A DNA stretch of 64,000 bases, taken from a virus. Position numbers and translations under genes: made by a program. The notes beneath the pieces were generated by a model that was given only the letters and a program-made list of their open reading frames with translations, was not told the origin of the DNA and searched no databases. How positions within the stretch are numbered: the first letter of the stretch is position 1; every line of letters begins with the position of its first letter. Positions 47,150 through 60,513 of the stretch are shown piece after piece. The stretch is taken from IMG/VR virus record IMGVR_UViG_3300035670_000065, positions 47,993 to 111,992 of that record; one strand, 5' to 3'.

Positions 47150-47671
47150 ATGGCAAACATCTTTTTTGCTAGCGATCACCATCTAACTCATACAAACATA
47201 CTCACTTTTAAGCGCTCAGATGGAAGTCCTCTTAGGGATTTCCCTAATATCACCGAACACGATGAGTACATCATTGCTCAACACAATAACCGTGTTCGTG
47301 ATTGCGACAAGACCTACTTTCTAGGTGACGTGGTCATGAGCCACAAGAATCTTCACCTCCTGGGTAGGCTGAATGGAGAGAAGGTTCTAATTAAGGGCAA
47401 CCATGATTGTGCTAAGCTAAGTCAGTACGAGCCTTACTTCAAGGATATTCGTGGCAGCCACCAGTTTAGCGGTATTATCATGACTCATATCCCTATTCAT
47501 CCAGAGAGTCTGGCTAGATGGGGCGTCAATATTCATGGCCACCTACACTACCATCGTGTTCCAGATCAGTACGGTAATCCGGACAAACGATACTTTAATG
47601 TTAGTATGGAATGTCTAGACGACTATACACCGATCAGTCTTGAGGAAATAAAATCTAGACTTGATCTCTGA
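47150..47671 (+). CDS. Calcineurin-like metallophosphoesterase
   Basis: SDHH, LGDV, GNHD, HGHLH. Confidence 0.88.
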   Translation: MANIFFASDHHLTHTNILTFKRSDGSPLRDFPNITEHDEYIIAQHNNRVRDCDKTYFLGDVVMSHKNLHLLGRLNGEKVLIKGNHDCAKLSQYEPYFKDIRGSHQFSGIIMTHIPIHPESLARWGVNIHGHLHYHRVPDQYGNPDKRYFNVSMECLDDYTPISLEEIKSRLDL

Positions 47672-47941
47672 GTTAAAACAGCGTATAATATCTTTATTGA
47701 ATGGGAGAACACTATGAACGAAACGACACTAGAAATTGTGAGACTTTTGAATGATGTTGGCCTGTTCCCCGGAGAGACTGTATTAGTAGAGATCAATGAC
47801 CTGGTTCAATCCACGCTTGATGAAGCGTACAGTGATGGATACCTCGAAGCACAAGCTGAGTTTGATGTACCGGAAGAATACGAGTACGACTACTAAAAAT
47901 TCAGACTTGACCCTAAACTGAAATTGCTTTATAATAGTTAT

Positions 47942-49210
47942 ATACACTGAGGAAAACGAATAGCGATAATTGACGAATTATCTACTCGGGCGCAAACGGC
48001 GGGTGACGCGTCCTGATATAATCTGATCTCCGCTGCGGACAGTTAGCTACTGACTCCAAAATTGATCCCTAAAGTGTATACATATGGTGGTAGAGACAAC
48101 GAAACTCTCCAACGCTTCTAGGTAAGTGCTTGCAGAACGCTACGGCGTCAATATTCTGCATAAACCTAGTACCCTACTGATGAGCTAGTGAAACTCTAGC
48201 GAAACGGCAGACAATCTAGCGAATAGGTGCGGAGAGGCTTCAATCCAATCCCCTACATAGCGGTCTGTTCGTATAGGTAAAATCAAGAAGTGTGGAACTG
48301 TCAAGCCACTAGCGGAGAAGTCAACGCTCTCCAATATACTGCTAGCGCTAGCTATGACGCAGTTGACCCAAGCTGTAGGGGGACTATAATTCTAAATGAC
48401 CCGTAATAAAGCATTATTGGATATCTACATAGTGCTTACGGAACAATATAGAATCTTGGTAAAACGGGTTACTTTAGACGACCTGGGAACAGAATAAGTC
48501 CACAACTTAGACCGTGTTAAGTATAAAATACGTTTAGTGGTGGTAGTGCGAGGCTATTGTTAAACGGATTGCTAAGATCCGGCCACTTAAATAAATCCAG
48601 CGCGAGTGCAGCGTTCCAACGATAGAAAGCATCAACGGTAATAGTTGGATTATCTGGTACTAAGGTGAGTATGTAAGGGAGCCAGTAGAAGTCTGATGAA
48701 CGAGGGTCGCCTCACCCCCTGCATAAAGGCCGATTGAGAATCGACCACCTAAAAGTCCAAGGACACAAGTGACTATAAATATAGTGTTAGTGCGACATTG
48801 CCCTGTTTAAGCACTTAAATCCTAGAAACTGGCAAAGGGGTATCCGCCCTATGTATAACTGGATAGGCCGTGCCTACAAGCCGAATGTAACTGGAGACTG
48901 CCTAGGCCACCCGTGCCTCGATCGCAAACGGTAGGGATACAGGCCAACCCCGGAGTGAAGAGTTTTCCACTAACTTGGTTTCTTCTTCAATCTACCTCCG
49001 CCTCAACGGTAAATCAGCTGTAGATAGCTCGTAAATCCGTATGAAAGATATTGTTAGCGGTGTTTCCTCGATTCTTCCGTAAAAGTAACGAAGTGTAGCC
49101 TGACGCTGGCTATGAGTCCCGTAAAGACAGTACGTTGTGATATGAGCCTGACCAAATCACAGAAATCTCGTGGTTAGGACTCAAAGCCTCCTGTGTAAGG
49201 AGGCTTTGTT
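47942..49210 (+). ncRNA. Candidate giant structured non-coding RNA (about 1.27 kb)
   Basis: No ORF of 60 aa or more in any frame from 47897 to 49304; promoter 47907-47935; terminator 49183-49214; many hairpins. Confidence 0.6.
48170..48279 (+). ncRNA. Type I hammerhead ribozyme
   Basis: CTGATGA(48177)-GCTAG/CTAGC stem II-GAAA(48201)-stem III CGGCAGAC/GTCTGTTCG-GTA cleavage triplet (48271-48273)-TAGG pairing with CCTA (stem I). Confidence 0.8.
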
Positions 49211-49214
49211 TTCT
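49183..49214 (+). terminator. Intrinsic terminator
   Basis: AAAGCCTCCT/AGGAGGCTTT hairpin plus T-rich tail. Confidence 0.7.
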
Positions 49215-49725
49215 GTAGGTTCTTGTAGGTGGACATAGGTCGTTGAGATACACGACTGAGAATGTCGAATCCTTTAGAATCTACAGAAAACAAAAGGAGA
49301 GTATATGATCCGAGAATTTCAGCAAACATTAGAATCACAACTAAAGACATTTGACCCTAGGGATGTAACGGATTTAGCACATTTCAAGTCCCTACGTTTC
49401 GACGGTAAGCAAGGCTGCCGTCGTTACATCGTTGAGCATCCGTTTCCGGATGTAATGTCGATGATGCTGCATAAGATTGCTGTAGCTTATCTAAAAGATA
49501 GTAAACAATATACTGCGTCAGAACTAGCGAGGTACTAAAATGAACCTAATAAACTGCGAAAACTGTGGAGTTGTTCTAAATAAGAAAGCGGTACACTTTG
49601 CACACGATATATGGAATGAAAACGGCGAATTAGACGAGGACTTTGGAACATATAGTTTCAAAGAGGAAATGATGGTTGCCTACGTCAGATGCCCTGTCTG
49701 TAACGAAAAAGTATTGGACGAATAA

Positions 49726-50475
49726 ATGTTAGTTAAACTTCTGTCAGACCTACACATTCATAATAACAACCCGTTCCGTTATACGGATCACGGAGAGTAT
49801 GTTTGCGTTCTAGCAGGAGATATTAGCGAAGGTATGCATGGTGTGGAGTGGGCGTTAGCTTGTATTCCAGACCACATTAAAGTGCTGTATGTTCCTGGGA
49901 ACCATGAGTACTATGGTCAGATTTACCAGGTGCTAAATGCACGTTTTGCTCACCATAATAAGAGAGGTACTCATGTAACTGTGCTGCAGGAGCAGTCTGT
50001 TACGATTGGTGACATTGAGTTTGTAGGCACGACCCTATGGTCAGACTTTGCGTTGTATGATAACCCTTCAAGGCACGCTATCTACTGGAAGAACGGCCTA
50101 AACGACTCCAGGTGGATTTGGCGGGAAGAAGGCGGTGGGATTGGCCCACAAGACTTCCTAGACTGGAATGCAAGGTCACTCGCGTTTCTGCGTTCAGTTG
50201 CAGAGACCCCCAAAGATAAGACAAGAGTTCTTATCACTCACTACTGTCCAGATCTTTCGGTGGCGCCCAGGTACCGAAACGATGAGCTAACCCCTGGTTT
50301 CGCTACGCATATCCCTGTGGAGACACATGAAACATTCGACTTCCATTTTCACGGCCATACCCATGATAGTATGAAATATGAGTACCCATTCGGTACTAAG
50401 GTATTCTGTAATCCTAAGGGTTACGGTATGGAGAACGTATCGGGATTTAATCAGGAGCTAGTACTGGATATTTAG
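49726..50475 (+). CDS. Metallophosphoesterase
   Basis: SDLH, AGDI, PGNHEYY, HGHTH. Confidence 0.88.
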   Translation: MLVKLLSDLHIHNNNPFRYTDHGEYVCVLAGDISEGMHGVEWALACIPDHIKVLYVPGNHEYYGQIYQVLNARFAHHNKRGTHVTVLQEQSVTIGDIEFVGTTLWSDFALYDNPSRHAIYWKNGLNDSRWIWREEGGGIGPQDFLDWNARSLAFLRSVAETPKDKTRVLITHYCPDLSVAPRYRNDELTPGFATHIPVETHETFDFHFHGHTHDSMKYEYPFGTKVFCNPKGYGMENVSGFNQELVLDI

Positions 50476-59254: not shown

Positions 59255-59900
59255 CTAAGGAGATTGTTATGCGAATGTAGATAACTTTACAGGAGTATAA
59301 TATGTCTAGAACTTTTAGAAAACAGCCATACACCTGGCGTAGTACAGATCCTTTGTTTGACTGGACGTGTTGCGAGGACGAGGTAGTATGGGAAGATGTA
59401 GAATATGCTTTTATTAACAGAGACTTTGGTCAGTGGTCACGTTACACTTACTATACTGTTAAGTACAAAGCAGATAGCAAAACAGGGAAGAGACTGTTAG
59501 CGCGTAGCAAGATGGACAAGGTTATTACCTTCAAAGAGCCAGGACCCTCGTGGTTTCGTAACCTTTTTGAAGAGCGTCCTCTGCGTCGTAATAGCAAACG
59601 TGAACTTCAGAAGTTCATGTACGATGAAGGCTACGAACCTATCATAGATTCTATCCCGCGCAAAAAGATTTACTGGACATGAACAGCTACACTCGATAAC
59701 CGATAAGAAGCCGGAGTTTCCGGAACTACTGGTGGAAGGCCGAGGAAGTAGGGCTGGCGTTGATTCAATCTCATTCATGTTCATCCTATTCAAGCTAGAA
59801 CAAAACGAGAACGGGATGCGAACCCTAGATATCGACAAAACTAGCCCCTGTCGCAAGGGAACGGTGGACTACCCTGATAAAGTGGCTGCCGTGAAACTAA

Positions 59901-60125
59901 TTCGGTGATGGCAAAGTAAAAGTATTCAAGACACGGGTTCGACTCCCGTCATTTCCAAGACTACGGGAATGTAACGGCTTCGATTGGGTATGACTAGCAA
60001 TGCCGGAGAATCGTCAGCTAAGACGTAAAAACAACGCATAATAAATGCAAACGATGAAAGATATAGCCTAGCTGCTTAAGTTAGGCGAAGGTTTCGGGAC
60101 TGTCCCTTCTTACCAATACAGTCCC
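59901..60125 (+). ncRNA. ssrA: Circularly permuted (two-piece) tmRNA, tag ANDERYSLAA
   Basis: T-arm plus 3' acceptor CATTTCC-A (59950-59957) precede 5' acceptor GGGAATG (59965-59971; G3-U70); tag ORF 60047-60079; 5' boundary approximate. Confidence 0.88.
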
Positions 60126-60513
60126 ATTTTGTTACTATCTTACTCGCCACTTAAGCTAATATATGCGGAGTTTCGTCGACAATAACCTTCCGCGGGTAAT
60201 CAGGAGCACCTGACTTGGGTAGGGTAGTATCAAAATATAAACGGAGTAAATATGGAAAAACTATTAGAGAAGTATGTTGAAAACGAAACTAAAATAGCTA
60301 CCATTAATGGACTCCTAATTGCAGAAGCAATGTGTGCTAGGAAGCTCCAAGAAGTTTACAGTAGAGATATTTTAGATATTATGGGCGACATTGCCGCAGC
60401 TATAGAGGACATTAAAAATGCTTAAGAAATTACTGAAATGGATTGTCACGTTAGAAAGTCCATCTCACAAAAGATTTGCAGAACTAATGTTTCTGACTAA
60501 AAAATAAACTAAT

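Follow-up and report, generated by a model that had tools for sequence, protein, structure and literature searches.

Here, we report that an uncultured T5-like phage carries a large non-coding RNA with a hammerhead motif inside it. On the evidence of sequence comparison, the motif is probably a genuine type I hammerhead ribozyme that self-cleaves and thereby processes the 1.27-kb RNA in which it lies. The stretch of DNA analysed, called the window below, is 64,000 nucleotides long and comprises bases 47993–111992 of the 111,992-bp IMG/VR record IMGVR_UViG_3300035670_000065, which is rated complete; positions given without a locus name are those of the window. A siphovirus-type structural module is encoded in the window, and the phage terminase is ~47% identical to the terminases of T5-like Salmonella, Escherichia and Vibrio phages. 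The large RNA is surrounded by a tRNA island, in which Rfam finds 19 tRNA matches and a permuted tmRNA. The gene for this permuted (two-piece) tmRNA is located at 59860–60134, and such a gene is also present in the same island of most relatives (L003, L006, L007, L009–L014 and L016–L019).

No ORF of at least 60 amino acids is found on either strand between 47897 and 49304. A promoter and a terminator, the latter being the sole terminator of the region, bracket a unit of ~1.27 kb on the + strand that starts near 47942 and ends near 49212, and the hammerhead lies on the transcribed strand of this ORF-free unit, ~230 nt from the 5' end of the large RNA. The first-pass annotation had described the ribozyme as embedded in a giant RNA, and the single promoter-to-terminator unit supports that description. 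The features of the unit and of the ribozyme are as follows.

47907–47935, + strand: sigma-70-type promoter of the large RNA, TTGACC-17 nt-TATAAT, 11/12 matches.
47942–48172, + strand: 5' part of the large non-coding RNA, 5' of the ribozyme; ORF-free, conserved in the homologue L002 with compensatory changes.
48173–48176, + strand: stem I 5' strand, CCUA; from direct reading and the descriptor, covarying across the family.
48177–48183, + strand: core C3–A9, CUGAUGA; from direct reading and the descriptor, the same in L002.
48184–48188 with 48196–48200, + strand: stem II, GCUAG/CUAGC, with loop UGAAACU; five clean pairs.
48201–48204, + strand: core G12, A13 and A14 plus A15.1, GAAA; from direct reading and the descriptor.
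48204–48212, + strand: stem III 5' strand, ACGG+CAGAC; covarying across the family, G·U changed to G–C in L002.
48213–48262, + strand: structured 50-nt insert at the tip of stem III, with a compensatory change in its distal hairpin in L002.
48263–48272, + strand: stem III 3' strand, GUCUG, a bulged U and UCGU, ending in U16.1 (48272).
48273, + strand: A17 of the GUA triplet, assigned by alignment to the independent model R2; predicted cleavage 3' of it.
48274–48277, + strand: stem I 3' strand, UAGG; from the descriptor, covarying across the family.
48274–49212, + strand: 3' part of the large RNA, the predicted ~939-nt 5'-OH product; ORF-free.
49182–49208, + strand: intrinsic terminator of the large RNA, an 11-pair stem followed by a U run.

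Rfam 15, applied to 47800–49400 at E values up to 10, gave no GOLLD, ROOL, HEARO, OLE, group I or group II intron or RNase P; its sole match to the large-RNA unit at this threshold was a partial Hammerhead_3 (48166–48210, 16.2 bits, E = 4.7). An internal promoter candidate at 48363–48390 (TTGACC-16-TATAAT) was rejected: L002 has a 14-nt spacer and TATAGT as second hexamer, and the sequence is therefore probably a structural element. A small ORF at 48290–48406, 3' of the ribozyme, was also rejected, its frame being broken in L002 by a 2-nt indel. A long, almost perfect hairpin (UUUUCUGUAGGUUCU ... AGAAUCUACAGAAAA) occupies 49207–49292, with the large-RNA terminator on one side and the Shine–Dalgarno sequence of the next ORF (49305) on the other. 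There is no clear promoter between the terminator and this ORF, and thus the downstream genes may need read-through from the large-RNA promoter.

The motif was read against the type I criteria given in the Methods of Perreault et al. (2011; PMC3088659), namely C3, U4, G5, A6, N7, G8, A9, G12, A13, A14, A15.1, U16.1 and H17. A complete hammerhead core had been proposed at 48170–48279; every element listed in that proposal was located in its place, and we read the whole at 48173–48277 on the + strand. All 13 core positions match the published consensus with no mutation, and no mispair lies beside the core, the adjoining pairs being G48184–C48200 (10.1–11.1), U48274–A48176 (1.1–2.1) and A48204–U48272 (15.1–16.1). 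Stem I has four clean pairs followed by a C·U mismatch and is among the shorter ones of the family, and stem III has nine pairs, including one G·U, together with one bulged U. Loop II fits the family consensus YGAAANU. Our own type I descriptor finds one site on the two strands of the window, and this is 48173–48277; when the whole window was dinucleotide-shuffled 1500 times, it matched three times on the two strands (~0.002 per window), and across 538 kb of real phage loci its only matches were the window site and one Rfam-certified hammerhead.

Comparison with a homologue of the large RNA provided the first line of evolutionary evidence. We fetched 29 syntenic IMG/VR loci by means of the phosphoesterase gene just upstream (47150–47671), and nhmmer detected the large RNA in only one of them, L002, whose phosphoesterase is 81% identical. 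The L002 RNA has its own promoter (TTGATT-17-TATAAT) and its own terminator, the stem of which differs in sequence and keeps its pairing, as well as two extra insertions, each closed by a hairpin. The two large RNAs are 69% identical over aligned columns. Their RNAalifold consensus contains 44 compensatory changes, compared with 2–5 in slid controls, a count that is inflated because RNAalifold favours covarying pairs; many of the compensatory changes fall in the conserved 3' part (48274–49212). The hammerhead core of L002 is the same as that of the window at every position. Within this lineage of two sequences, the informative changes are two compensatory pairs in stem II, which reads U·U plus CUGAG/CUCAG in L002, and the single G·U to G–C replacement in stem III; the four pairs of stem I are invariant between the copies, with L002 gaining a fifth. 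The mispair beside the L002 core, U10.1–U11.1, is a reported natural hammerhead variant (PMC3088659), and the earlier mutational work, as cited in that paper, ranks U–U as the best-tolerated mispair at this position. Just 5' of its ribozyme, L002 has a 110-nt insertion (L002:6986–7095). A 10-bp stem (AUUAGUUAGU/ACUAACUAAU) closes the insertion, and GGUUCAAAUCC within it resembles a T arm; Rfam makes no tRNA call there. No further homologue of the large RNA was found by blastn against GenBank phages, in the whole records of ten relatives, in four exact-pattern scans of IMG/VR or in two exact-pattern scans of GTDB genomes. One of the IMG/VR scans, with TAGCCTGACGCTGGCTA, gave three matches and a metagenome scan with a GC-rich 20-mer gave 22, all of them random.

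The hammerhead itself has many more relatives than the RNA around it. A covariance model of the ribozyme domain of the window and L002, designated R1, weakly matches L004:6550–6652, and BLAST aligns the window with the same module over 27 nt at 89% identity. The module (L004:6557–6645) is hammerhead-shaped and occupies the syntenic place in a related phage, with no large RNA around it: immediately upstream of it are the same phosphoesterase gene and a TTGACT-17-TATAAT promoter, and it forms part of the leader of a homologue of the window metallophosphoesterase at 49726–50475. It has the stem II of the window, whereas stems I and III are wholly different in sequence and still paired; its core reads CCGAAGA, that is, U4C. 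The L004 fold has thus been kept with an altered core, which indicates that the hammerhead fold can persist without the consensus core. Elsewhere in the same related phage, at L004:2737–2792, a compact type I hammerhead lies among tRNA genes; this is the only hammerhead called by Rfam in ~264 kb of related loci (RF00163, 38.1 bits).

From the stem II common to the window and L004 we derived the pattern GAGCTAGNGAAANTCTAGCGAAAC, comprising stem II and GAAAC, which leaves C3–A6, stems I and III, U16.1 and H17 unspecified. Of the 14 IMG/VR stretches that match it, one lies on the L004 contig and 13 lie elsewhere, and all matches on these 13 other viral contigs are type I hammerheads by their sequence features, the irregular ones being one with a U4C core and one with a 2-nt core insert (L075). 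The matched hammerheads have the core CUGA(A/U/C)GA, A or C at H17, 3–6 pairs in stem I and 2–10 contiguous pairs in stem III; in most relatives stem I has five pairs, with an A–U pair where the window has C·U. Other family members have stem III inserts of 30–60 nt in the same place as that of the window. Several contigs bear multiple copies, spaced between genes: eight in L070 (L070:5207–11946), four in L065 (L065:8250–10180), three in L071 (L071:113–1576) and two in L073; this arrangement has been described for phage and prophage hammerheads (PMC3088659). The 34-nt 5' half of the window element is identical at 33/34 positions to L073:1308 and at 32/34 to L067:1625, both of which are compact canonical hammerheads, and the fetched loci of these two contigs encode no protein detectably in common with this phage. 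The putative ribozymes of the subfamily are widespread between the genes of uncultured phages, with a near-constant stem II, GCUAG-YGAAANU-CUAGC, or close variants of it.

Covariance models carried the comparison further. With R1, 22 hammerhead-type sequences were retrieved; the window and L002 account for two of these and other loci for the remaining 20. Model-guided alignments were used because MAFFT could not align stem III segments of such different lengths; the 22-sequence alignment therefore leans toward the structure to which it was fitted, and in it 94.9% of cells pair, 20 of the 26 pairs change on both sides and all three stems covary. This level of pairing was reached in none of 500 shuffles (0/500), and slid controls pair at 25–42%. 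A second model, R2, was built from 18 hammerheads on ten contigs with the window, L002 and L004 left out. Its end-to-end alignment to 48165–48285, in which the extension of stem III counts as inserted sequence, scores 58.2 bits (E 8.6e-16), and its score for L002 is 28.5 bits; the Rfam-certified hammerhead of L004, as a control, reached 30.4 bits. R2 had no other match below E = 1 on the phage genome. At the gathering score Rfam does not call the window hammerhead. It also misses, at the gathering score and at E up to 1, all 13 loci of the relatives (20 clear relatives), and its silence on the window element is thus uninformative. The identification as a hammerhead made in the first-pass annotation is strongly supported by the family model, the covariation and the near-identical relatives, and we regard it as very likely that 48173–48277 belongs to the hammerhead family.

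The positions of the relatives bear on what the element does. In L067 and L073, the module comes directly after a stop codon and 25–45 nt before the next start. On the 238-kb phage contig L066 (6400–7190, minus strand), a hammerhead of the subfamily starts right after the stop codon of an ORF; the next ~490 nt contain no convincing ORF and lead to two tRNA genes, so that the hammerhead heads a non-coding stretch. The usual job of the module, judging from its positions in L067, L073, L004 and L066, would therefore be to split a transcript in two and define a 5' end.

In our proposed scheme, the hammerhead would be transcribed as an internal part of the 1.27-kb structured RNA of the tRNA island, and during transcription three helices would assemble around the CUGAUGA/GAAA core. 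By established hammerhead chemistry, the 2'-OH of A48273 would then attack its own 3' phosphate. In type I hammerheads, the 5' product retains nearly the whole ribozyme after cleavage; the 5' product here, of ~332 nt, would accordingly keep nearly all of it and end in a 2',3'-cyclic phosphate, and the 3' product, of ~939 nt, would begin with a 5'-OH at U48274. Pieces of ~330 and ~935 nt had been predicted for a cut after 48273. The cut would fall between two domains of the large RNA, one of 230 nt on the 5' side and one of 940 nt on the 3' side, and would either separate them or leave a nick. We infer that cleavage takes place in vivo and that it defines the mature ends of both parts; that the hammerhead matures the large RNA is a reasonable reading of its position.

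The suggestion that the resulting ends feed RNA-repair enzymes did not hold up: the complete 112-kb record has no RtcB (PF01139) or RNA ligase (PF09414) domain. The two flanking metallophosphoesterases have generic calcineurin-like domain matches only, to which no RNA-end function is assigned, and a PDB sequence search with them returned no informative match. The neighbouring phosphoesterase has ~18 close relatives of 75–92% identity. The same enzymes flank the L004 module, where the large RNA is absent, and we therefore read them as mere neighbours of a ribozyme-like module. Host enzymes could act on the RNA ends, and nothing here points to such action.

Thermodynamic folding gave a less favourable picture of the element than the comparative data. 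In partition functions of the full-length RNA, stem II forms with a pair probability of 0.84; in such single-sequence calculations, stem I is near 0 and stem III is 0.01 in the window. The local minimum-free-energy fold differs from the hammerhead (z = 0.13), and the centroid fold pairs the stem I 3' strand with a competing upstream ACCUA (48164–48168). When the ribozyme regions of the window and L002 are folded together, RNAalifold returns the exact hammerhead three-way junction. Fast hammerhead cleavage at physiological Mg needs a tertiary contact between stem I and loop II. A candidate pseudoknot of 3–4 bp between loop II and the 3' flank of stem I (UGA/UCA in the window and UGGU/ACCA in L002, with one apparent compensatory change) was rejected, as it was equalled in 45–61% of shuffles.

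These folding results are among the reasons to ask whether the element still cleaves. It may be a relic, derived from an intercistronic phage hammerhead and now retained as a structural three-way junction with poor cleavage or none. Besides the preference of the full-length RNA for other pairings of stems I and III and the competition of ACCUA for the stem I 3' strand, this reading would account for the four-pair stem I with its C·U mismatch in place of the A–U of relatives, and it has a precedent in the syntenic L004 copy, which holds all three helices with a U4C core. In any conserved three-way junction the junction nucleotides tend to be conserved, and the identity of the L002 core is by itself no proof of catalysis. 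Nevertheless, neither copy of the large RNA has lost any core position, and 13 exact core nucleotides would be unexpected without selection for catalysis. Moreover, the window copy scores best under the independent family model, and family members with a stem I of 3–4 pairs exist (L070). We therefore consider a relic unlikely. With the short stem I and its C·U mismatch, the unfavourable folding, the competing ACCUA and the U4C copy in L004 counted against catalysis, our confidence is very high for membership in the hammerhead family and good, at a lower level, for self-cleavage that processes the RNA.

A different possibility takes cleavage for granted and concerns its consequence. Long-range helices could hold the nicked RNA together, giving a two-piece molecule comparable to the tmRNA of the same phage, or cleavage could be switched by ACCUA; in either form, the RNA would depend on the hammerhead for an obligatory step of maturation or control. 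The candidate long-range helices across the cut are the following.

47942–47952 with 49166–49174: candidate long-range helix.
47999–48007 with 48906–48914: candidate long-range helix.
48124–48130 (AAGUGCU) with 48810–48816 (AGCACUU): candidate long-range helix.

The predicted helices across the cut are about as large as chance would produce between segments of 230 and 940 nt, with covariation in hardly any of them; we hold this reading to be distinctly unlikely. If true, it would represent a new class of giant phage RNA with hammerhead maturation or control.

Switching can also be considered apart from such a role, in that an alternative pairing of stem I or the folding of the large RNA might turn cleavage on or off and yield a partial or timed cut. 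Near-copies of the stem I 5' strand stand side by side, AAACCUAG at 48162–48169 and CCCUA at 48172–48176; the upstream copy is the one used in the centroid fold, the two are parted in L002 by the hairpin-closed 110-nt insertion, and there is a published proposal of regulated phage hammerheads (PMC3088659). The alternative helix, however, shows no covariation and shrinks from five pairs in the window to only four in L002, and complementarities this short are expected by chance, as the pseudoknot control illustrates, which leaves a conditional ribozyme very improbable. A chance match to the hammerhead consensus within a structured RNA, which could be argued from ~250,000 windows at ~0.002 chance matches each (hundreds of chance motifs) and from the absence of an Rfam call, is effectively refuted by the 33/34 identity of the 5' half to a canonical hammerhead in L073, whose fetched locus has no protein in common with this phage, by the score of 58 bits under independently built R2, and by the conservation of the motif in L002 with compensatory changes.

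We return to the preferred reading, a cleaving type I hammerhead within a large RNA. The type I hammerheads of phages and prophages (Perreault et al., 2011, PMC3088659; RF00163, clan CL00010) share with it the core, the open-stem-I topology, A or C at H17 and the expected chemistry, with 2',3'-cyclic phosphate and 5'-OH ends. They lie between protein genes, whereas the window element lies inside a 1.27-kb ORF-free structured RNA, and it differs further in its structured 50-nt stem III insert and in having only four stem I pairs. Unlike RF00163 members, it and the whole subfamily found here fall below the Rfam gathering score. In its account of haloviruses HF1 and HF2, the same study places an HHphage variant 13 nt upstream of the helicase start codon, and the 5' end mapped for a transcript there is no more than three nucleotides from the cleavage site (PMC3088659). 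The likeness is that of a phage hammerhead setting a downstream 5' end, which is a prediction in our case, and the L004 copy is likewise in a gene leader. The downstream product of the window element differs in being a non-coding RNA that ends at a terminator, and the HF1/HF2 core is, in that account, a variant needing high salt, whereas the window core is the consensus.

Large ornate phage-associated RNAs of the GOLLD (RF01998) type and ROOL have reportedly been studied by cryo-EM (bioRxiv 10.1101/2024.12.08.627333). The window RNA resembles them in setting only, being large, highly structured, phage-borne and beside tRNA genes; it differs in that no such Rfam family matches it (47800–49400, E up to 10). 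Among titles and abstracts of the literature, no hammerhead was found described inside GOLLD or ROOL RNAs, and no paper was found that covers both hammerhead ribozymes and Demerecviridae. Phage hammerheads are already well known, and the one in the window is notable for its large-RNA setting, its long stem III insert and its membership of a subfamily missed by Rfam.

The ribozyme offers a testable entry into a 1.27-kb phage RNA, with predicted exact ends at 48273/48274 and two defined products. The subfamily that Rfam 15 misses comprises 22 hammerhead-type sequences on 13 distinct contigs including the window, and a new Rfam seed alignment could be built from the hammerhead alignment of the L063–L076 subfamily. 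Because a whole type I subfamily escapes the Rfam models, hammerhead counts in phage genomes are underestimates. Finally, the module of L004 stands directly before a phosphoesterase gene with no large RNA, and the large RNA may therefore have grown or inserted around an ordinary intercistronic ribozyme.
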